From positions 1-49,437 of the IMG/VR virus record IMGVR_UViG_3300020045_001925: a stretch of 49,437 bases of DNA. One strand, written 5' to 3'. Shown here piece by piece: positions 2,487-49,437 of this stretch. The stretch's first letter is position 1; every line of letters begins with the position of its first letter. The notes under the pieces were generated by a model. That model did no database searches. It was not told the origin of the DNA and was given only the letters and a program-made list of their open reading frames with translations. The translations under genes were made by a program, and so were the position numbers. This DNA comes from a virus (lineage: Duplodnaviria; Caudoviricetes).

Positions 2487-2501
2487 TGAGCTTGTTACCA
2501 C

Positions 2502-2993
2502 ATGGAGTTATACGAAATGATTACGTTACAGCAGCAGATTGAAGCACAAGAACAAGCAGTTAGAACTATCGACCCGCGGCGTTTAGGCATGGCCGAATCA
2601 ATCCTCACCAGCCTACAGCGACTGCAAGCGGCTGAGGGGCAAGATTCGGTTACCAACAAAACCGAAGCAGAAAAATCGCGCGGTTACGTCGCTCTTGGTT
2701 CTGGAGCTTATCGTTTGCAACAGTGCGAAAATGCAAGTCTAGTAATTTGCTTCCGTAGACCTGATGAAATAGGACTTCCCGTCGGCCATCGTGCGGATGA
2801 GATTGATTTAACGCCGATTCAAAGCGAGGATATTATTGTCATGCTGAAATTCGTGAGTGCGGAGGGTTTAGATAGCCTAGAAACGCACTTGCGAGAAATT
2901 CGCTTAGATAATTTCCCAGATACCGTGATCGCCAAGCATGGCGAACCGGCAATCCCCGAAACCATGCTTGCAGCAGCCAAAGGCGGTGCGTGA
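2502..2993 (+). CDS. Hypothetical protein (start probably 2517)
   Basis: 163-aa ORF; GGAG SD at 2504-2507 fits ATG 2517. Confidence 0.7.
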   Translation: MELYEMITLQQQIEAQEQAVRTIDPRRLGMAESILTSLQRLQAAEGQDSVTNKTEAEKSRGYVALGSGAYRLQQCENASLVICFRRPDEIGLPVGHRADEIDLTPIQSEDIIVMLKFVSAEGLDSLETHLREIRLDNFPDTVIAKHGEPAIPETMLAAAKGGA

Positions 2994-11104: not shown

Positions 11105-11137
11105 GCCGTTCCCCTTCGTTGTGGTAAGATGAATTTA

Positions 11138-18146: not shown

Positions 18147-18320
18147 TTAACCCGCTTCGGCGGGTTTTTTGTTGGCCGCTAATTCAATCGCGGCACGTAT
18201 TCCCTCGCTTACTTCACCGTTACCAATGCGCCGCGCTTGCCGCGCGTGCCATGCTGTCAAACGCACACTATAGGCATCCATTGGCACGTCTTGGCGCGCC
18301 TCTTGAATATGTTTTTTCAT
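18147..18320 (-). CDS. 57-aa ribbon-helix-helix-like DNA-binding protein (not in ORF track)
   Basis: MKKHIQEARQDVPMDAYSVRLTAWHARQARRIGNGEVSEGIRAAIELAANKKPAEAG; YSVRL strand, then helix-G-helix. Confidence 0.6.
   Translation of the reverse strand: MKKHIQEARQDVPMDAYSVRLTAWHARQARRIGNGEVSEGIRAAIELAANKKPAEAG
18148..18170 (+). terminator. Rho-independent terminator
   Basis: AACCCGC-TTCG-GCGGGTT followed by T-run. Confidence 0.85.
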
Positions 18321-21696: not shown

Positions 21697-21724
21697 ATTT
21701 TACATGACCTGACGTTCTAGTCAA
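21697..21724 (-). promoter_or_regulatory. Promoter of the RNA array
   Basis: TTGACT-16-TAAAAT; includes TTGACtagaacGTCAG motif. Confidence 0.7.
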
Positions 21725-22386: not shown

Positions 22387-22416
22387 TTTGTGAAGCTCCG
22401 TGAAGTGATGAATCGT

Positions 22417-28309: not shown

Positions 28310-28605
28310 TGATCGAAATTCCGCTCAAAGGTGGCGCTGAAAACGCGCATCAACAATTTAGCGCAACGCTTGATGGTGTATTCCTCAATTTCACTTTGAA
28401 TTACGTGTCATATCTTGACGCGCCTGCTTGGTCGATGGACATTCACCGCGACGGATTGTTGATTGTCGCGGGTGCTATGCTCGTATCGGGTGCAGATGTG
28501 ATCGCGTCGTATCGCGCAGGTATTGGACATTTGATCTTTAGCGGCGCAGAGGTTACGCTGGACAATCTCGGCATGGCGAATAACCTTGTGTGGGTAGCTG
28601 AATGA
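28309..28605 (+). CDS. Baseplate protein
   Basis: MIEIPL..QQF..L..WSMDI..L.SG.D pattern; position. Confidence 0.7.
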   Translation: MIEIPLKGGAENAHQQFSATLDGVFLNFTLNYVSYLDAPAWSMDIHRDGLLIVAGAMLVSGADVIASYRAGIGHLIFSGAEVTLDNLGMANNLVWVAE

Positions 28606-30044
28606 ATTTCGGGCGCATGTGGCAAGTTGAAATTGACGGCGAGGTATTCGTTGCGGCTAAAGACGTGCCACAGTTGCGCGTTGAATTTGATGTGACGGTG
28701 GCACACGGTAACACGATTTCATTCGCTGACATTCGGATCACCAATTTGGCGAAAGTATCGACGATCCGTCAAGGCGCGCATATTTCACTGAGCGCCGGCT
28801 ACAAAGATTCGTATGATGTGATCTTCACCGGCAATGTGACCAACTCGCTCAAAGAGCGCAATGGTACGGATATAATCACACGTTTGCTGTGTCGGTCGGG
28901 CGAGCCGTATTCGGGTCGTCTATCATGCACCGCCTCATACGGTAAGAACGTGCGCGTGGTTGATGTGATCAAGAGCCTTGCTGCGGCATGGCCTCGCCAA
29001 CTTGAAATGGATGAATCACAGTTCGACAACGCGCCGCGCATGACTTCGGGTTACAGTGTGAACGGGGATATTCCGTCAGCGCTCAATGAATTGAAATATG
29101 CATTTAAATTTGAATGGACGCAGCACAACGGCAAGTTAATTGTGAACAAGCGCACATATCCGCGCAAAACAGGTATCACAGAGGTGAACCAATTTACCGG
29201 AATGGTCGGAATGCCCGAGGTCAGTTTGGGATCGGACGGTTTGGGCGTGTTTGTGGTTACGGCGCTCGATCCGCATTTTGCCGTATGGGGGCGCATTAAC
29301 GTCACATCGGAGTTTGCTACATTTAACACCGGCAACTTATTCATTTCAGCAAACTCGGGCGATGCTTCGGCAAACGGTGAATACAATATCATGGCGCTAC
29401 GGCATCGCGGTGATTCGCACGGTTCGCAGTGGACGACTGAAATCGAAGGTATCAGACCGGGCATTGTTACTGAGCAACGCCCAGCATCGGCCGCACCGCT
29501 TGATACTGTGCCGAAGCCAGTAACGCCCGATAATGGTACGCTCGTGTGGGGAATGAATGTTGACCAAGATTTCCGTAATAAAACGCGCGAGATTGCAACT
29601 AAATTAGGTTTCGATCCGAATTGGCTTATGGCGGTAATGGCGTTTGAAACGGGGCGCAGTTTTAGCCCTTCGGAGAAAAACCCAGCGGGCAGCGCGACGG
29701 GATTGATTCAATTCACTGAATCGACGGCACGTGGGCTAGGTACGACTACGCGTGACTTAGCGCGTATGACTGCGGTACAGCAACTTGATTACGTGTACGA
29801 GTATTTCAAACCGAGCAAGAGTAAGATCAATAATCTTGGCGATTGTTACATGTGCGTTCTGTGGCCTCGCGGCATGGGAAAACCCGACACATATATAATG
29901 TGGGTCAAAGACGATCCGGTTACGGGGAAATATTACAATGCGAATGCGGGTCTGGACACGTCAAAAGACGGTACGATCACAAGGGGCGAGGCTGTGGCGC
30001 GAGTGAATCGGCAATTGAAAGACGGTAGGAACTCCGCCAAATAG
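28602..30044 (+). CDS. Baseplate hub fused to lysozyme-like (transglycosylase) domain
   Basis: LSAGY..IFTG hub motifs; C-terminal LMAVMAFETG..SATGLIQF. Confidence 0.8.
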   Translation: MNFGRMWQVEIDGEVFVAAKDVPQLRVEFDVTVAHGNTISFADIRITNLAKVSTIRQGAHISLSAGYKDSYDVIFTGNVTNSLKERNGTDIITRLLCRSGEPYSGRLSCTASYGKNVRVVDVIKSLAAAWPRQLEMDESQFDNAPRMTSGYSVNGDIPSALNELKYAFKFEWTQHNGKLIVNKRTYPRKTGITEVNQFTGMVGMPEVSLGSDGLGVFVVTALDPHFAVWGRINVTSEFATFNTGNLFISANSGDASANGEYNIMALRHRGDSHGSQWTTEIEGIRPGIVTEQRPASAAPLDTVPKPVTPDNGTLVWGMNVDQDFRNKTREIATKLGFDPNWLMAVMAFETGRSFSPSEKNPAGSATGLIQFTESTARGLGTTTRDLARMTAVQQLDYVYEYFKPSKSKINNLGDCYMCVLWPRGMGKPDTYIMWVKDDPVTGKYYNANAGLDTSKDGTITRGEAVARVNRQLKDGRNSAK

Positions 30045-30068
30045 AAAAGACCCGCCGAAGCGGGTCTT
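30045..30068 (-). terminator. Rho-independent terminator (minus strand)
   Basis: AAGACCCGC-TTCG-GCGGGTCTTTT. Confidence 0.75.
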
Positions 30069-30097
30069 AATTCACCGTCACCACACAGAGGAATCCC
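30045..30097 (-). ncRNA. Candidate ~50-nt antisense sRNA
   Basis: Extended -10 TGcCATACT (30102-30110), GAUUCCUCUGUGUGGUGAC seed, C(UUCG)G terminator with U-run on minus strand; no minus ORF. Confidence 0.5.
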
Positions 30098-30124
30098 CGT
30101 TAGTATGGCACAAGAGTTTAAAAT

Positions 30125-30832
30125 ATGAAAGTAATCAACGAAGATAATCCATATCGTGAGACATTCTTTGAAATGATGAAAGAGGTCTACACTTGCTCGC
30201 CTGGTTATATTCTCAGTTTTGACCCGTTGACTCAGCGCGCACAAGTACAGATCGGCATCATGCGCGTGGATGGGCGCGACGAGTCACGCTTCGAGCCGCC
30301 AATTGTGGTTGAAGTACCTGTGAGTTTTCCGGGTGATGATTGGTCACTGGAATATCAGATTGACCCGGGATGTGAAGGGCTTATTCATTTTTCGCAGCGC
30401 TGCATCGACGGTTGGCTCAATACAGGCGGGATTGCGGATAATCCTATCGGACGCTTTCACTCGATTCAAGATGCTTTCTTTGTACCGGGCGTGCGGTCAC
30501 TCCCCAACGTGACAACCGATTTCAAGAATGACGGCGTGCGGTTACGCGATAAAATTGGCACGCAGACCGTGTGGCTCAAGAAGGATGGTTCGATCCATGC
30601 CGAGAATCCGAAGGTGCATGTTATACTGGGTGCAGATGGCGTTATCAACATGAACAATGGTGTGGGTAATATCACAATGGCGGCGAACGGGACCGTGACT
30701 ATCAACGGCGTGACAATCGATACTGCGGGCAATATTACTGCGACCAACGTAACTGCTGGCGGTAAATCATTACGCACTCACGTTCATGGTGGCGTAATGG
30801 CGGGTGGTGCAAATACAGGTGCTCCGGTATGA
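30125..30832 (+). CDS. Baseplate central spike (gp138/gpV-like)
   Basis: VPVSFP..GCEGL..FSQRCID.W, RFHSIQDA, beta-helix repeats, C-terminal THVH metal site. Confidence 0.88.
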   Translation: MKVINEDNPYRETFFEMMKEVYTCSPGYILSFDPLTQRAQVQIGIMRVDGRDESRFEPPIVVEVPVSFPGDDWSLEYQIDPGCEGLIHFSQRCIDGWLNTGGIADNPIGRFHSIQDAFFVPGVRSLPNVTTDFKNDGVRLRDKIGTQTVWLKKDGSIHAENPKVHVILGADGVINMNNGVGNITMAANGTVTINGVTIDTAGNITATNVTAGGKSLRTHVHGGVMAGGANTGAPV

Positions 30833-36387: not shown

Positions 36388-38519
36388 TTGGTCAACGGCA
36401 GCACCAGCTTCAGCGCCTCGTCGATGTACCATTGATAATTCAAGTCTGACCAATCAAACGAATCAGCATCAGCGCAATCCGTTACGCGATACCCTGAACA
36501 AATATTCTCATATCGCGTTTCATGCGTTGATTTGTTACCCGTGTGAATACGAATATCCCACGGTGTACCGACGCTATCCAGTTCGCCAGGCTGACCCGCA
36601 ATTTCACGCATTACCGCATTGTAAAAATCATCGGTCAATTTGGCGCGTCGTTTCCAGCTTCCTTGTGTCCCTGTCGGCGGTGAGATTTTGACCATGTTGC
36701 CGCCGTTGCGACTCACAAAATAACGTGTCGTGTTTTGCAGCTCTAATTCCACATTGAAGTCAGTCCAACGCATGATTAATTGCGACGCTCTCGGCACTTT
36801 GGCGCGACACATAAAGTCGAACGGGTCTTTGTGGTTACGGATAAACGCCTCGACCGATTCACCGCGTACCAGTGCGGCCTCCGCAGCGCGCGCTACGACC
36901 TGGGCGCTCGGGTCTTGGTGCCAAAGTGTTTTGTACTCGTACGCGCCTTTGCGCTTCACTTTGCCGCTATCGTAAACAGCCGTGTAATTATTGACGTCAC
37001 GAATTGCCATAAGATCATAATGTGCAAACTCAAGCGACAGCTTAGTGATGCTTTCCCACCATTTGCAAACTTGTTGCACATGACTCAAATATTGACGCGG
37101 GCAGCGATATGTCACGCCGTCCGTATTGATCTGGATCACGGATAAGTTCGGCACTTTGACCAGTTGTTCAGCGAGCATGCACAGCATTAATTGACCGTTG
37201 ATTGTGGTCATCATCGTATATTGCGGGTCAAATAGCGGGCTGAACGCGTTATTTGAATTACCGTACGACGCGTTCAATGCCTCTTTCAGCGCAGCATTTT
37301 CTGGCGTGCCTTTTTTGAACGTGGATCGCTGATTGAAAATGTCGTGATACGTGTCGCAGAATTGTTGGCCCAAATGCTCAGGGTACATTTTGTTGACAAT
37401 TGCCGTCATCGGGTAAAAAGATGTGACGTCTGCGTCCTCAATTACAAAGTCATCGTCGCTTCGCACAATTTGCGATTCAATCGACCCGTGAATGCCGCCG
37501 ACGCCAAATACGTAGGTGAACCCGTCGATTGTGCAATTTAGATCAGAAAATACACCCTTCGTTGTGAGTTTCCCAATATCATTAATATCCCTTACGGCGA
37601 TGGTCTTGGATTTGAATAGTTCAAGAATGCGGTTAAATTCTGGATGCTCGAACTTGATGTACGGAAAGATCACATCGGCGAATACGATAGATAGGCGCGG
37701 CGTTTGGCGCGGTACGCGCTTGCCAGCACCGTCGCGGGTGTAGCATTGAATACCTGACTTTTCCATTTGACTGACAAGGATATTCATACCGATTTTGGTA
37801 TTGGAAAAGTTGAGCATATTCGTGCCGTATTTTTCCGACAGCGACTCGCGTAGATGAATCTCGGAAAGTGACCGCACGTAGAATTTAAGCGTTTCAACCA
37901 CGTCATGGCGGTTATAACTGAGCAGTACGTCCATTTGTTCACTGGTGAGAACCGTGCCGACGGGGAACGGTAAATCCCGCACGTTACGCGATCGCATGAC
38001 GATTTCAAGCGCTTTGAGCGATGTATGTTTGGCCTTATTATCAAAATGCCAAATCTTGAATAAATCCAACTGCGCGAATATTTGATCCTTATCCCAAATC
38101 GTCGTGCCGAATTTATCTTGCGATTTGATGATGCTCATCGCGTAGCGGTAAATGTCGCCAGCGGTGCAGTACGGATTAGCAAGAATCCAATGGACAACTG
38201 GGTAATCGAAGCCGTTATTATTGAAACCCACACCGCGCGCGCCTCCGCGACCAAGCCCGTAAATGAATTCAATGAACCGAACGTTGTCTTGCACACGATC
38301 CGATATTTCAAATACTTGCTCCATGCCCGTTGCGGCGTGAATGAATGTGGCTGTAAAGCAGTTTGGGAATGTTTCAAGGTCATACCCCCAATCACGCACG
38401 TCAAGCGGCGCAGCGATTGAAAAGGCGTGAGACGTGCCGCAATGTGGGCAATCTTCTAAATCAGACGGGTAAGTTCTATCGCACCCGTTAATGGGATCAC
38501 ATTGTGATAAAAAGCGCAT
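36384..38519 (-). CDS. DNA polymerase (family B-like) with 3'-5' exonuclease
   Basis: YDLET, GFNNNGFDYP, YNRHDV exo motifs; DVTSFYP, KEALNASYG, INTDG pol motifs. Confidence 0.92.
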   Translation of the reverse strand: MRFLSQCDPINGCDRTYPSDLEDCPHCGTSHAFSIAAPLDVRDWGYDLETFPNCFTATFIHAATGMEQVFEISDRVQDNVRFIEFIYGLGRGGARGVGFNNNGFDYPVVHWILANPYCTAGDIYRYAMSIIKSQDKFGTTIWDKDQIFAQLDLFKIWHFDNKAKHTSLKALEIVMRSRNVRDLPFPVGTVLTSEQMDVLLSYNRHDVVETLKFYVRSLSEIHLRESLSEKYGTNMLNFSNTKIGMNILVSQMEKSGIQCYTRDGAGKRVPRQTPRLSIVFADVIFPYIKFEHPEFNRILELFKSKTIAVRDINDIGKLTTKGVFSDLNCTIDGFTYVFGVGGIHGSIESQIVRSDDDFVIEDADVTSFYPMTAIVNKMYPEHLGQQFCDTYHDIFNQRSTFKKGTPENAALKEALNASYGNSNNAFSPLFDPQYTMMTTINGQLMLCMLAEQLVKVPNLSVIQINTDGVTYRCPRQYLSHVQQVCKWWESITKLSLEFAHYDLMAIRDVNNYTAVYDSGKVKRKGAYEYKTLWHQDPSAQVVARAAEAALVRGESVEAFIRNHKDPFDFMCRAKVPRASQLIMRWTDFNVELELQNTTRYFVSRNGGNMVKISPPTGTQGSWKRRAKLTDDFYNAVMREIAGQPGELDSVGTPWDIRIHTGNKSTHETRYENICSGYRVTDCADADSFDWSDLNYQWYIDEALKLVLPLTN

Positions 38520-38536
38520 GAGTGGTGACTCGCAAT

Positions 38537-39416: not shown

Positions 39417-40571
39417 TTATTTAACTTCCTTTTGTGTGAATGTGGTGTTGGCAAGTTGCCCATCGTTTTCAACCAGTTTGAAACCAGTCGAAGGAATTTC
39501 AGTATATTGAGCAATGACGGACTTGTCAATACCTTTTTTGCGAGCTTGTGACGGGGTGTCCAAAGTCACAGGTTTACGAATATCAACGCCTAATAAATCG
39601 CCCATCATGATAATTTCATCAACCGGCACGTCAGCGATCCATCGTTCCCGACCTTTACCCGCCGCAATGCCAAAAAATGCTACAGGTTGACCGTTCTTGA
39701 TTTCATGAATCGCTTGTTCTTCGAGGCCGCTCAATCGTGCTTCGATCATTGACGCAGCGCGACGTAGTAGCTTCAATTCCACGCCGAGCGTATCGCCCGT
39801 TAAATTATGCGTAACGAGTTGACCCGCATAATCCACGCCCTCATACGCAACGCGCAAGACCGTGTCACAGTGAGCCCGAGCGGAGCACGTCTTGCAATGG
39901 CTCGACACGACACACTCCGGCGCGTCTTGCATCGCCGCTTTGACGCCATCGCACACTTGATAATAAAGCGCCAAGTGCTCAGCGTGACCATACGTCCAAG
40001 TGCGTACCGTGCCTTCATGATGAAACCCGCGAGGCTGAACGATCCGCAAGTCAAAATTAATGTCGGTATTGAGTGGGAAGTGAGTGTTACGAATACCTTC
40101 CGCATACAGCACCAGCGACCAATTACCGACCGCCTCGACCAAGCGATAACCCGCTTTAAAATCCCACACAACAACCGTGTTGGTCGTCGGGTTGTAAAGC
40201 CACGCATCCGCATAACCGTACCACTCCGGCACGATGTGACTCAAGTCGATACGGTCTTCGACGTGTAGGTCGGTCGGTGCGATGTGGTTATCAACGCAGT
40301 ACTGAAACACCTCCTCTACATAATCGGCGGCGACATCCCTCAATTCTTGAGTGATTACGATACCGTCTTTCGATAATGTACCGACCGGATAACTTACTAA
40401 GCGATCACATTCTGGGCGCATGAACCATTCAGCCACTTCATGACAAGCGCGACCTTCCAGCACCGACTCGGATATTTCACCCGGCAAGCGTGGATAAAGT
40501 TGTTGCGCTTGAAACGAGCCACCGCACTTCATCCAATGATTCGCGTCTGATACTTTGGGGAGTGCTTTCAT
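39417..40571 (-). CDS. Cas4-like PD-(D/E)XK exonuclease (DUF2800-like)
   Basis: W.KC.GS, EGRACH, GYADA, WDFKAG, HCKTC..RAHC. Confidence 0.82.
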   Translation of the reverse strand: MKALPKVSDANHWMKCGGSFQAQQLYPRLPGEISESVLEGRACHEVAEWFMRPECDRLVSYPVGTLSKDGIVITQELRDVAADYVEEVFQYCVDNHIAPTDLHVEDRIDLSHIVPEWYGYADAWLYNPTTNTVVVWDFKAGYRLVEAVGNWSLVLYAEGIRNTHFPLNTDINFDLRIVQPRGFHHEGTVRTWTYGHAEHLALYYQVCDGVKAAMQDAPECVVSSHCKTCSARAHCDTVLRVAYEGVDYAGQLVTHNLTGDTLGVELKLLRRAASMIEARLSGLEEQAIHEIKNGQPVAFFGIAAGKGRERWIADVPVDEIIMMGDLLGVDIRKPVTLDTPSQARKKGIDKSVIAQYTEIPSTGFKLVENDGQLANTTFTQKEVK

Positions 40572-41550: not shown

Positions 41551-41589
41551 GATTTGATTCCTTAATGAGTGGTTGATTTGATACGGTGC

Positions 41590-43356: not shown

Positions 43357-43390
43357 AGGATGTATCAACTCACCACACGGAGCAACTGAA

Positions 43391-43921
43391 ATGGATTTCA
43401 TCATACCTACTCGCTTTTTAAAGGCAGCATCGTTGGCAGTGGCGAAAAAAGATAGTCGTCAATATTTACATGGCGTTCATTTCAATAACACAAACGGCAA
43501 ATTGCGAATCGAATCGACTGATGGTTGTCAGTTATTTATCGTAACGCTTGATGATGAAAACGACGCGCCGGACGTTAAATTTATCATCCCTGAAACGGCT
43601 TTGAAACAATTGCCAAAAACACCCTCACTACAAGTTAGTTTCGACCCGGTCACTAATAAAGTGACGGTCGGTATTGTCACGGTTTCAGCTATCGACGGTA
43701 AGTTCCCCGACGTGAACCGAATCATTCCGACAAATAACGCGTCAAATGAACTAGCCGATTTTGATTGGGATCGCGTCGCACTCGGTCAAAAAGTGTTGCG
43801 TTTGGTTGATGGTAAAACCAGCAATGTTTACAAACTGCAATTCGACGGCGTGAACATTGGGCGAATGACTAATCGTACCGGAAAAGCCGCGTTTTATATC
43901 ATGCCATTAATTATTAAATAA
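43391..43921 (+). CDS. DNA polymerase III beta-clamp-like protein (partial fold)
   Basis: DSRQYLHGVHF, ESTDG, IDGKFPDVNRIIP, IMP C-terminus. Confidence 0.75.
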   Translation: MDFIIPTRFLKAASLAVAKKDSRQYLHGVHFNNTNGKLRIESTDGCQLFIVTLDDENDAPDVKFIIPETALKQLPKTPSLQVSFDPVTNKVTVGIVTVSAIDGKFPDVNRIIPTNNASNELADFDWDRVALGQKVLRLVDGKTSNVYKLQFDGVNIGRMTNRTGKAAFYIMPLIIK

Positions 43922-44749: not shown

Positions 44750-44787
44750 TCAACTTATCGAATCACTACACAGCAACGGAAAACAAA

Positions 44788-46957: not shown

Positions 46958-48248
46958 CGGAATCGACGCAGCATCCGTAGCATGGTTACCATTAGGGTGG
47001 GAATGTGTAGGATTAGCCGAAATAGAACCATTTCCCAACGCTGTACTTTCGTATCATTACCCCAATATTCGCAATTTCGGTAACGTAATGGGCGACACAT
47101 TTATTCAAGACGTAGCGTCTACGTTACCAGACATAGTAATAGGAGGAAGTCCTTGTCAATCATTCAGCGTGGCGGGGTTGCGCCAATCACTAAATGACAG
47201 TCGCGGGGAATTATCTCTACGATACATTCAAATAATAGAGGCATTGGATGCAGCTCGAATTAGTAATGGACTGGAACCCGTCATCGTTGTTTACGAAAAC
47301 GTACCCGGTATGCTCAACACCAACGACAACGCGTTCGGATGCTTTCTTGGCGCTCTTTCCGGAGAAGATGATGCGCTCGAACCGCCAGGGGGTAAATGGT
47401 CGAACGCTGGTGCTGTGTTTGGACCCCAAAGGACAATCGCTTGGGTCGTCAAAGACGCCCAATATTTCGGAGTGGCCCAACGACGCCGTCGTGTGTTCCT
47501 TGTCGCAAGTGCTCGAAAAGACTTCGATCCCACAACGGTTCTTTTTGAGTCCGAAGGCGTGCGCCGGGATATTGCGCCGCGCCGAGAGTCGGTGCAAAGT
47601 GTTACCTACCCAGTTGCACCGTGCCTTACTAGCAGCGGTCGAGGCGTCGAGCGAATCGGAGAAACACGAGGTCAAGACCCTGTAGTGGCGGTACAAACTT
47701 TTGACCGTCAATCTAGCGGCGAGTATGGATCAGCAGCCATTGTGGATGCAATGGCTGCTCGGGATTACAAGTCCGCAAGTGACTTGATCGCCTACGGAAT
47801 CCCCGGTAACTGGATCGGGCGCGAGCCGAAGAATGGCGGCAATGCCGTTGCGCCAATGGTCGATATTGCACCGTGTCAGACCAAGACGGACGTGCACGGT
47901 GTGGCTTTTACCCCGTTTGAAGTCGCAGGTACGATGAAATCATGTAATCAATCTGGCGGGTTTAGTAATTCTATCGACCATGCTGCGGGCGGTTACATGG
48001 CGCTACAGGGTGAAATGCAAGTTCGCAAATTAACACCCGTAGAGTGTGAGCGCTTACAAGGGTTCCCCGATACGTATACCGCGATCCCTTGGCGCGGCAA
48101 ATCCGCCGAAGATTGTCCGGATGGTCCACGGTATAAAGCGCTTGGAAATAGTATGGCAGTTCCGTGTATTACTTGGATCGGACAGCGCATACTTGACCAC
48201 CGCGCCAGAGTGTCGCATAATGACGATTTAGACAGGAGTATTACATGA
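46935..48248 (+). CDS. DNA cytosine-5 methyltransferase
   Basis: Motifs I FSGI, IV GSPCQ, VI ENV, VIII QRRRR, IX RKLTPVECERLQGFP, X GNS. Confidence 0.93.
   Translation: MKYLSLFSGIDAASVAWLPLGWECVGLAEIEPFPNAVLSYHYPNIRNFGNVMGDTFIQDVASTLPDIVIGGSPCQSFSVAGLRQSLNDSRGELSLRYIQIIEALDAARISNGLEPVIVVYENVPGMLNTNDNAFGCFLGALSGEDDALEPPGGKWSNAGAVFGPQRTIAWVVKDAQYFGVAQRRRRVFLVASARKDFDPTTVLFESEGVRRDIAPRRESVQSVTYPVAPCLTSSGRGVERIGETRGQDPVVAVQTFDRQSSGEYGSAAIVDAMAARDYKSASDLIAYGIPGNWIGREPKNGGNAVAPMVDIAPCQTKTDVHGVAFTPFEVAGTMKSCNQSGGFSNSIDHAAGGYMALQGEMQVRKLTPVECERLQGFPDTYTAIPWRGKSAEDCPDGPRYKALGNSMAVPCITWIGQRILDHRARVSHNDDLDRSIT
47248..47685 (+). CDS. Overprinted alternative-frame ORF inside the methylase (beta-subunit-like)
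   Basis: SLSQVLE..PQRFFLSPKACAGILRRA..LP..L..AL; GAGG upstream of ATG. Confidence 0.5.
   Translation: MQLELVMDWNPSSLFTKTYPVCSTPTTTRSDAFLALFPEKMMRSNRQGVNGRTLVLCLDPKGQSLGSSKTPNISEWPNDAVVCSLSQVLEKTSIPQRFFLSPKACAGILRRAESRCKVLPTQLHRALLAAVEASSESEKHEVKTL
48193..48221 (+). promoter_or_regulatory. Promoter with TTGAC-N6-GCCA motif
   Basis: TTGACC-17-CATAAT just upstream of TetR-like gene. Confidence 0.6.
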
Positions 48249-48535
48249 CACCGAAAGCATCACATGAGGCTATTTTGGACGCAGCGATGCATTTTGCTGC
48301 ACTTGATGGCTATAACAATCTTCGCCGTGATCCTATTGCGCTACGTGCCGGCGTGGCGAATGGTTCAGTCACCAATCTGGCGGGCAATATGCAAGGTTTG
48401 CAAGATCAAGTTATGCGCCGCGCCGTAGCGACTGAACATTTGGGTATCGTTGCGCAAGGTTTGGCGCATGGCGACCCCATTGCACAGCAAGCGCCGGACG
48501 AATTAAAGCGCAAAGCCCTCGCCAATCTGTTATAA
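48245..48535 (+). CDS. TetR-like HTH transcriptional regulator
   Basis: AILDAAMHFAALDGYNNLRRDPIALRAGVANGSV matches TetR N-terminal HTH; AGGAG SD. Confidence 0.75.
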   Translation: MTPKASHEAILDAAMHFAALDGYNNLRRDPIALRAGVANGSVTNLAGNMQGLQDQVMRRAVATEHLGIVAQGLAHGDPIAQQAPDELKRKALANLL

Positions 48536-48555
48536 CCGCACACCACGCACCGCAC
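48535..48555 (+). repeat. 21-bp direct repeat (second copy 49092-49112)
   Basis: ACCGCACACCACGCACCGCAC on both sides of ORF 48571-49092. Confidence 0.9.
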
Positions 48556-48570
48556 TAGGGATCGACATAA

Positions 48571-49092
48571 ATGAAAATTGAGCAAAGCACGGTACGCAAA
48601 TTATTAATAAGCGGCGTTGACCAGCTTGACCCATTAACTGTGATTATTGAAGAATTTAAGCTTGGTGAGTGTCGAGTAATTATCACTTGTTATGGCGATT
48701 CATGGACTGCGTACTGGGGCAGCATGGGCGGTACACTGGCTGAGTTTTTCGCACGGACAAGCCCCTGCTACTTGGTCGGATGCTTTGCCCCAGCATTGCA
48801 AAGCATCATCAGTGACGCCGAAGGCTTGCCGTCATTCCTACGCAAAGAAATCATTAATCAGCGTAGAAAAAAGGATATTGATAAACGAACAGCGCGAGAG
48901 CTGTTTGATAACGTTTGGGATATGGGGTCTCCCAACGAGGATAAATCTTTAATGGATGACATTTTCGGTAATGAATGGTGGTTTACCGATTTCCCTACAA
49001 TCACCAATCCAAACTATGAATACTTGACGCGAATTGTTGAGGCGGTTCAAGCCGCAGTTAAAGAGACACATGAAATAACACCCATTGTCTGA
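48571..49092 (+). CDS. Hypothetical protein
   Basis: LDPLTV..G..IITCYG.SWTAYWGSMG family pattern. Confidence 0.75.
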   Translation: MKIEQSTVRKLLISGVDQLDPLTVIIEEFKLGECRVIITCYGDSWTAYWGSMGGTLAEFFARTSPCYLVGCFAPALQSIISDAEGLPSFLRKEIINQRRKKDIDKRTARELFDNVWDMGSPNEDKSLMDDIFGNEWWFTDFPTITNPNYEYLTRIVEAVQAAVKETHEITPIV

Positions 49093-49122
49093 CCGCACAC
49101 CACGCACCGCACAGAGGCAATC

Positions 49123-49437
49123 ATGCATCAATTACCACCCGCGTTAGCGGCTATGGGCGATTTTGCCCAATTTATGATCTACAAACTCGTTCCGTCTACT
49201 TCCCGCCCCGGTAAAACTGATAAATTCCCATGCAATGTGGTCACAGGTGATGTTGTCGGCGCGCATGACTCACGACATTGGGTCAGCGCCGATACGGCAT
49301 GCATCGAAGCGACCCGACGCGGTGCAGGCTGGGGCGTGGCGTTCGTCTTGACCGACGACGATCCGTTTTTCTTTATTGATATTGATAATTGTCAATCAGG
49401 CGGTCAATGGTCACAATTGGCGACAAATCTTTGCGCG
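49123..49437 (+). CDS. Primase-helicase, 5' part (continues into ORF at 20)
   Basis: MHQLPPALAAMGDFAQFMIYKL..GKTDKFP; GAGG SD; in frame with 20..2182 across the overlap. Confidence 0.88.
   Translation, partial: MHQLPPALAAMGDFAQFMIYKLVPSTSRPGKTDKFPCNVVTGDVVGAHDSRHWVSADTACIEATRRGAGWGVAFVLTDDDPFFFIDIDNCQSGGQWSQLATNLCA
49317..49437. repeat. Terminal overlap (identical to 1-121)
   Basis: Direct comparison. Confidence 0.97.

Follow-up and report, generated by a model that had tools for sequence, protein, structure and literature searches.

What, if anything, is encoded on the minus strand of the short gap that separates the baseplate hub gene from the spike gene in the phage genome described here? 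An original prediction, made from the letters of the DNA, proposed that this gap specifies a trans-acting small RNA (sRNA) complementary to the ribosome-binding sites of early and replication genes. We followed up that proposal over the whole stretch of DNA (49,437 nt, referred to here as the window), whose gene matches are to myophages of the Jedunavirus/Yokohamavirus group, and over a set of related genomes.

Genome context

The virus record is complete, with end repeats of 121 bases each (positions 1-121 and 49317-49437), and the closest named relatives of its DNA polymerase are those of the Edwardsiella phages PEi21 and MSW-3 (60%). Neither a tyrosine integrase nor a resolvase was found in the complete genome. 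The structural genes lie on the plus strand, where they are broken up by small minus-strand cassettes, and sigma-70-like promoters with the motif TTGAC-N6-GYCA, which occurs 14 times in the window, stand ahead of non-structural genes (Table 1); a few of the 14 are a quasi-palindrome read in reverse. The gene labels on which the original prediction was built hold: the primase label of the gene starting at 49123, a primase-helicase of 791 codons that crosses the end-repeat junction, is borne out by PHROG, the clamp-like gene at 43391 has a beta-clamp domain above the Pfam cut-off, and the DNA polymerase is confirmed, with its gene start at 38519.

The quasi-palindromic motif overlaps the -35 of the early promoters and is kept family-wide, and a TetR-like gene (48245-48535, below the Pfam cut-off) is a candidate for the protein that binds it. 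Downstream of the early-type promoters at 21724 and 13188 on the minus strand there is no convincing gene start nearby, and they may serve further non-coding RNAs or long leaders. The DNA polymerase match of five relatives (G005, G007, G009, G017 and G018) breaks near residue 520 into two parts separated by 0.5-0.9 kb, which is likely to reflect an intron or an inserted endonuclease.

The antisense unit in the hub-spike gap

The gap between the hub and spike genes is 80 bases long and carries a minus-strand unit, and we conclude that this antisense unit is a real element. The UUCG hairpin, the U-run, which is interrupted, and the extended -10 were all found on the minus strand where they had been predicted to lie. 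In the window lineage, which includes the closest relative, G001, the promoter has neither a good -35 nor the TTGAC-N6-GYCA motif and consists of the extended -10 alone; its TG and hexamer are those of the -10 of the regulator/primase promoter in phage KB2. The RNA is predicted to fold into two hairpins, the terminator and a weak 5' hairpin formed by the seed, with a loop GUGGUG (30084-30079) that is the complement of CACCAC. A partly folded seed and an interrupted U-tail are poor features for Hfq. At 18150-18170 another minus-strand cassette is closed by a hairpin nearly identical to this terminator.

The statement in the original prediction that the minus strand has no open reading frame is literally incorrect, as a TTG frame of 103 codons (30244-29933) crosses the element, but we did not accept this frame as a gene because it begins upstream of the -10 and passes through the terminator, and because its start, stop and downstream frame all differ in G001. 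The unit thus has, as far as can be predicted from sequence, what is expected of an sRNA gene, namely its own promoter, weak in the window lineage, and an intrinsic terminator, with no protein in between. A CsrB-like sponge on the plus strand was also considered and rejected, the rsmX match being to the terminator only. Four public RNA runs, matched with the antisense unit of L068, a relative among the Klebsiella phages, gave unstranded contigs, two of which cover the gap and the genes evenly and are thus neutral as to a discrete transcript.

Table 1. Positions of the unit, its flanking genes, predicted targets and promoter motifs (energies in kcal/mol)
Feature	Position	Strand	Basis or remark
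Baseplate hub, C-terminal lytic-transglycosylase-like domain; upstream flank	28602..30044	+	PHROG 196, annotated homologues
Baseplate spike; downstream flank	30125..30832	+	Annotated homologues
7-codon minigene, stop overlapping spike start	30105..30128	+	Sequence
Predicted extended -10 promoter element	30102..30110	-	Sequence; TG 30110-30109, hexamer 30107-30102
Predicted small RNA, ~55 nt	30041..30095	-	+1 inferred 7 nt past -10
Seed, ~27 bases	30069..30095	-	Anti-Shine-Dalgarno part 30092-30087 first, then G/U-rich part
Intrinsic-terminator-like hairpin, UUCG loop, interrupted U-run	30041..30068 (hairpin 30068-30047)	-	Overlaps hub stop codon
Primase-helicase leader and SD (start 49123)	49096..49122	+	Rank 1/69, -22.1
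Gene 48571 leader	48539..48563	+	-19.0
Clamp-domain gene 43391 leader and SD	43370..43382	+	-18.0
Gene 41550-40879 leader, first in exonuclease/SSB operon	41554..41588	-	-17.1; not in original prediction
Gene 11104-10709 leader	11110..11135	-	-16.3; not in original prediction
Gene 44788 leader	44763..44773	+	-15.4
Gene 2517 leader and SD	2492..2507	+	-13.8; 16-base run
ssDNA-binding protein (SSB) gene leader (start 39414)	39427..39454	-	-12.4 (G001, -17.2); not in original prediction
DNA polymerase start, weaker target of 8 bases	38522..38529	-	-9.3 (G001, -13.7); kept in G001
Gene 22386 leader, weak target	22396..22408	-	Rank 10 by plain duplex
TTGAC-N6-GYCA motifs	2459, 41590, 43328, 44722, 48193	+	Sequence
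TTGAC-N6-GYCA motifs	44737, 41633, 39529, 22444, 21724, 20271, 13188, 11166, 2474	-	Sequence
Long units of relatives	L001:1-520 minus (KB2); L035:1930-2500; L028:24500-24875; L037; G004, G016

Conservation and distribution of the unit

Between 30046 and 30095, 48 of 50 bases are identical in G001, to be compared with 189 of 461 (41%) four-fold degenerate sites in the four flanking genes, the proteins of which are 63-80% identical. The identity stops at 30095, seven bases past the -10, and resumes across the -10 itself. One change within the -10 of G001 is toward consensus, and the same change destroys the ATG of the plus-strand minigene (ATA in G001); the sole change in the seed stem replaces a U-G by a U-A pair and keeps the pairing. 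Judged by this comparison, the hub-spike unit is under purifying selection.

Near-complete genomes with varied gaps were chosen by hand from 160 loci obtained with a spike alignment and from GenBank matches, with gene starts taken from our own gene-calling script. An antisense unit closed by a terminator is present at the hub-spike gap in 18 of 21 of these genomes, a count that is not a prevalence because the genomes were hand-picked and that includes 17 units found by script and one, the hairpin unit of MSW-3, set manually. The unit is opened by a TTGAC-N6-GYCA, that is, early-type, promoter pointing antisense in 16 of the 18, the exceptions being the window and G001, and in the same 16 it ends in a hairpin with a U-run. 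Units are short in MSW-3, G003, G010, G011, G013 and G015, and long (200-500 bases) and free of ORFs in KB2, PEAT2, KsaM-C1, AAM22, G004-G007 and G016, where several tRNA-like arms precede the same type of final segment. These arms, which we take to be c4-like, have a conserved scaffold and variable loops. No antisense unit was found at the hub-spike gap of G014 and CASP1, and Vibrio phage 24 has no unit that ends in a detectable terminator; the gap itself is missing from PhiPLPE and from three Vibrio phages, and many prophage-type relatives have a terminator at the locus in the opposite orientation.

Rfam covariance models, including C4, GcvB and IsrK, gave no match at gathering score in the window, KB2 or L004, and on five loci only sub-threshold, terminator-driven matches (E up to 1) were obtained. 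ARAGORN found nothing in five loci of relatives. An exact-pattern scan returned two matches from viral contigs, namely G001 and a chance match within a gene of an unrelated contig, and none from metagenome contigs.

The comparison of relatives also bears on a reading in cis, according to which the segment acts on the late mRNA. It would then be either a plus-strand leader that brings ribosomes to a minigene translated in coupling with the spike gene, or a cis-antisense RNA by which the hub-spike transcript is cleaved or modulated. The window and G001 do have an in-frame minigene that ends on the spike start (13 and 7 nt past the SD), and a late mRNA running through the gap would by construction be a perfect complement of the predicted small RNA. 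However, 16 of the 18 genomes lack a coupled minigene and have the segment 74-545 nt away from the spike start, the start codon differs between the two genomes that have one, and action in cis has no need for the covariation with distant early leaders described below. The minigene, which the original prediction had named among the readings that would refute it, therefore cannot explain the family, since it occurs in 2 of 18 genomes only, and may be a second use of the segment in the window lineage; as an account of the unit we regard action in cis as rather improbable.

Pairing with early start regions in the window

All leader matches listed in the original prediction exist (49105-49122, 43370-43382, 2496-2507, 44763-44773, 48548-48563, 22396-22408 and 38522-38529). 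Their length, on which that prediction had relied, is no evidence by itself, as, with G-U pairs counted, 54 other sites in the window pair over at least 12 bases, of which no more than 3 are listed leaders. Longest-run complementarity was also dropped as a measure since, in a cross test by Watson-Crick run, the window's own leaders were not the best set for its seed. Because run length is within chance, a signal emerges only when pairing energy is calculated on start regions.

For this calculation the seed was taken as the 32 bases preceding the hairpin, and 69 start regions were classed as early-first (11, by promoter motif), structural (24, by homology) or other (34). By plain duplex energy, early-first regions of the window out-pair structural ones (p 0.029), and the real seed pairs better with them than does each of 100 shuffled seeds, a control that the original prediction had itself proposed. 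None of 2,166 other 32-nt windows (1,240 non-coding and 926 coding, those overlapping early leaders being masked) matches the seed's pairing with the 11 promoter-first leaders. With structure counted, the mean energy is -10.3 kcal/mol for early and -4.0 kcal/mol for structural regions (p 0.005), and the best ten of the 69 are those of primase-helicase, the cis spike leader, 48571, the clamp-domain gene, 41550, 11104, 44788, 2517, SSB and 10712; nine of these ten belong to early or replication genes and the remaining one is the spike leader in cis. Five of the 11 promoter-first leaders pair weakly, and the matches at the DNA polymerase start and at 22396, although present, are weak once structure is counted, ranking 14th of 69 and outside the best 16, respectively. 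The order of targets shifts in G001, where SSB and polymerase improve and the primase leader drops to -10.4 kcal/mol, and where one of the best targets is the structural gene that follows the capsid gene. Across the family, 12 of 18 genomes have early leaders that pair better with the seed than structural ones do, and better with it than with shuffled seeds, so that imperfect complementarity to unlinked start regions, as expected of a trans-acting sRNA, goes beyond chance in these; the enrichment is absent in the other six (G003, G005, G006, G007, G016 and AAM22).

Two leaders stand apart as observations in their own right. That of the SSB gene (39529-39414, minus) is long, nearly unchanged in G001 and forms a hairpin in other relatives, and is possibly an autoregulatory site. 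That of gene 15627, which is structural and follows the major capsid gene, shows complementarity to the seed not only in the window but also in G001, and this pairing could possibly tune stoichiometry.

An identical 21-base C/A-rich repeat (48535-48555 and 49092-49112) lies in the leaders of 48571 and primase-helicase, and as both carry it, the two best targets are not independent. Such duplication of leaders within these genomes, together with the resemblance of the plus strand of the gap to an early leader, might suggest that the gap preserves such a leader in inverted form as a relic, or holds a DNA-level binding site common to leaders, with no function as RNA. We consider this very unlikely, given that the segment stays at a single locus, flanked by promoter and terminator, across deep lineages, that its conservation is far above that of neutral sites, and that the orientation is always opposite to the sense leader of its own transcription unit, complement of the SD included.

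The seed, being G/U-rich with an anti-SD part, could also be directed mainly at host mRNAs with C/A-rich leaders, as is GcvB, with the match to phage leaders a by-product. Among 102 E. coli start regions, six reach -12.4 kcal/mol, the level of the SSB leader, and one reaches -19.4 kcal/mol, though E. coli may not be the phage's host. The phages' own early leaders nevertheless beat this 102-region sample in 8 of 12 lineages, and host targeting does not account for the covariation with phage leaders in phages whose hosts are related, which makes it an improbable main function.

Covariation of seed and leaders across lineages

If the unit acts on early leaders, seed and leaders should change together, and a check for this in related phages had been suggested with the original prediction. 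Leader types differ by lineage, being CACCAC in the window, CAACAC in MSW-3 and AACAGAGAG in KB2 and KsaM-C1, and the seeds differ too. In a 12 x 12 matrix with one genome per seed type, from which six near-duplicates were excluded and row and column effects were removed, a seed pairs with the early leaders of its own genome at an advantage of 1.6 kcal/mol (p ~1e-5, 100,000 permutations), whereas structural leaders in the same matrix give p 0.90. The effect persists when the SD is removed from the targets (4/50,000), when each genome is left out in turn (<=1/20,000 each) and when the four genomes initially inspected by eye are omitted (19/20,000). The lineages are related to one another, and in 7-lineage subsets, which lessen this relatedness but do not remove it, only 2 and 3 of 5,040 orders do as well. 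Three neighbouring control segments show no covariation (16,254, 15,257 and 2,286 of 20,000). The check was thus positive, with negative controls, and seed and targets do change together, as expected of an sRNA and its targets.

Within the long units, the peak of anti-leader pairing is at the 3' end in KB2, PEAT2, KsaM-C1, G004 and G008, and no clear peak was seen anywhere in the units of G005, G006, G007 and G016. On a portal tree, from which G003 is absent, the genomes that fail the enrichment test are nested within those that pass, which suggests that the seed match may have decayed or switched targets there.

Lineage-specific matching of seed and leader is also what an immunity determinant would show. 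By the same pairing, the RNA could persist in an infected or carrier cell and block early translation of incoming kin phages, in the manner of c4, which blocks ribosome-binding sites and sets the heteroimmunity of P1 and P7 (PMC12197685). The quasi-palindromic motif of the early promoters would suit such a role, as would the presence of a TetR-like gene. We think exclusion unlikely, as against it stand the complete genome with no tyrosine integrase or resolvase, the targeting of many early genes rather than of a single antirepressor, and the finding that seeds also pair fairly well with the leaders of other lineages.

Proposed mechanism

Taken together, the data are best explained by a conserved, antisense-facing non-coding unit that probably gives rise to an RNA of about 55 nt, which is predicted to pair in trans with the shared C/A-rich leaders and SD sequences of early and replication genes and would so lower their translation. 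Conservation, genome-wide rank and covariation speak for the original idea of one trans-acting RNA against shared early leaders and SDs; the weakly pairing promoter-first leaders, the genomes that show no enrichment and the different best targets of G001 speak against it in its full extent. As judged from these comparisons, the hub-spike unit is a conserved, co-evolving candidate regulator.

According to this model, the host sigma-70 polymerase would transcribe the unit, the loop GUGGUG would make the first contact with CACCAC in a leader, and pairing would then spread across the SD and block 30S loading. As the RNA accumulates, early protein synthesis would be damped at the early-to-late transition, the role that RegB has in T4; the effect may be the shut-off of the original prediction or a milder tuning. 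In relatives with long units, the segment would lie at the 3' terminus of a longer, structured transcript, from which it would be freed by processing or within which it would act. Late read-through of the opposite strand, giving a perfect complement, could titrate or destroy the RNA. The early-type promoter that the unit has in most relatives fits delayed negative feedback.

Comparison with known systems

GcvB of enterobacteria regulates many mRNAs by means of a G/U-rich seed that binds their C/A-rich translation enhancers. The comparison with it made in the original prediction is apt as to working principle, but it does not extend to homology, there being no Rfam match: GcvB is host-encoded, Hfq-dependent and about four times longer, and the seed described here covers the SD too and varies by lineage. 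Whereas GcvB acts on host amino-acid-transport genes, our view of the host side is that of 102 E. coli genes. P22 sar and P4 CI RNA are small phage RNAs that pair in trans with their own mRNA, and RNAs of the c4/CI type have a multi-arm, tRNA-like fold and are processed by RNase P. They and c4 belong to temperate phages with an immunity region and act on one antirepressor operon, whereas the predicted RNA of the window lies in the baseplate operon of an integrase-free phage, is 55 nt long with no Rfam match, has some nine predicted targets that are dispersed, unlinked leaders of early and replication genes, and folds into two hairpins, tRNA-like arms being confined to the upstream part of relatives' long units. 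The likeness to c4 is that of a small phage RNA directed, via loop sequences and with phage-specific matching, at the ribosome-binding regions of its own mRNA; trans pairing of this phage-specific kind is described for P1 and P7, and the same source mentions the AgvB sponge (PMC12197685).

The T4 RegB endoribonuclease, itself the product of an early-promoter gene, is described as inactivating many early mRNAs at the Shine-Dalgarno sequence (PMC3014915); RegB is a protein nuclease that cuts GGAG, whereas the unit described here is a predicted base-pairing RNA. Cluster K mycobacteriophages have a shared, SD-containing leader motif, SAS, before non-structural genes, with one copy in the opposite orientation and without a gene start in four K1 genomes (PMC3203893). 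SAS is a strict 13-bp repeat of temperate actinophages for which the sections available propose neither a function nor an RNA (PMC3203893), and the motif found here is loose and C/A-rich. Multi-target trans-acting sRNAs during phage infection have been reported for mobile elements, namely SviR of the Vibrio satellite PLE (bioRxiv 10.1101/2022.04.08.487710) and VpdS and PreS (PMC12197685), but these are RNAs of satellites or temperate phages that act on helper-phage or host genes, and in the parts of these sources at hand none is described as the mirror of one shared early leader. A published description of a phage RNA that mirrors early leaders was not found in a search that covered few subscription papers and had the 38 uncharacterised phage sRNAs in the supplement of PMC12197685 outside its scope.

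Implications

The hypothesis can be tested now, because the unit is present in cultured Klebsiella, Edwardsiella and Pectobacterium phages (KB2, MSW-3, PEAT2 and KsaM-C1), and the seed swaps between lineages provide built-in specificity controls. To our knowledge, the shut-down of early protein synthesis in virulent phages is understood for few cases, all of them involving proteins. We hold it possible, though we would stop just short of calling it probable, that in the virulent phages of this family the change from early to late expression is driven by one sRNA in co-evolution with a leader code common to the early mRNAs. Such an sRNA would be the RNA equivalent of T4 RegB, placed antisense in a late operon so that late transcription can neutralise it. 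It is possible, too, that such RNAs form a widespread, as yet undescribed class of phage master regulators. If this is true, it would account for the conserved C/A-rich leaders ahead of early phage genes, and perhaps also for the single SAS copy that cluster K phages carry in inverted orientation, and an antisense RNA acting on a whole regulon whose members co-evolve with it would represent a new layer of control of the lytic cycle.
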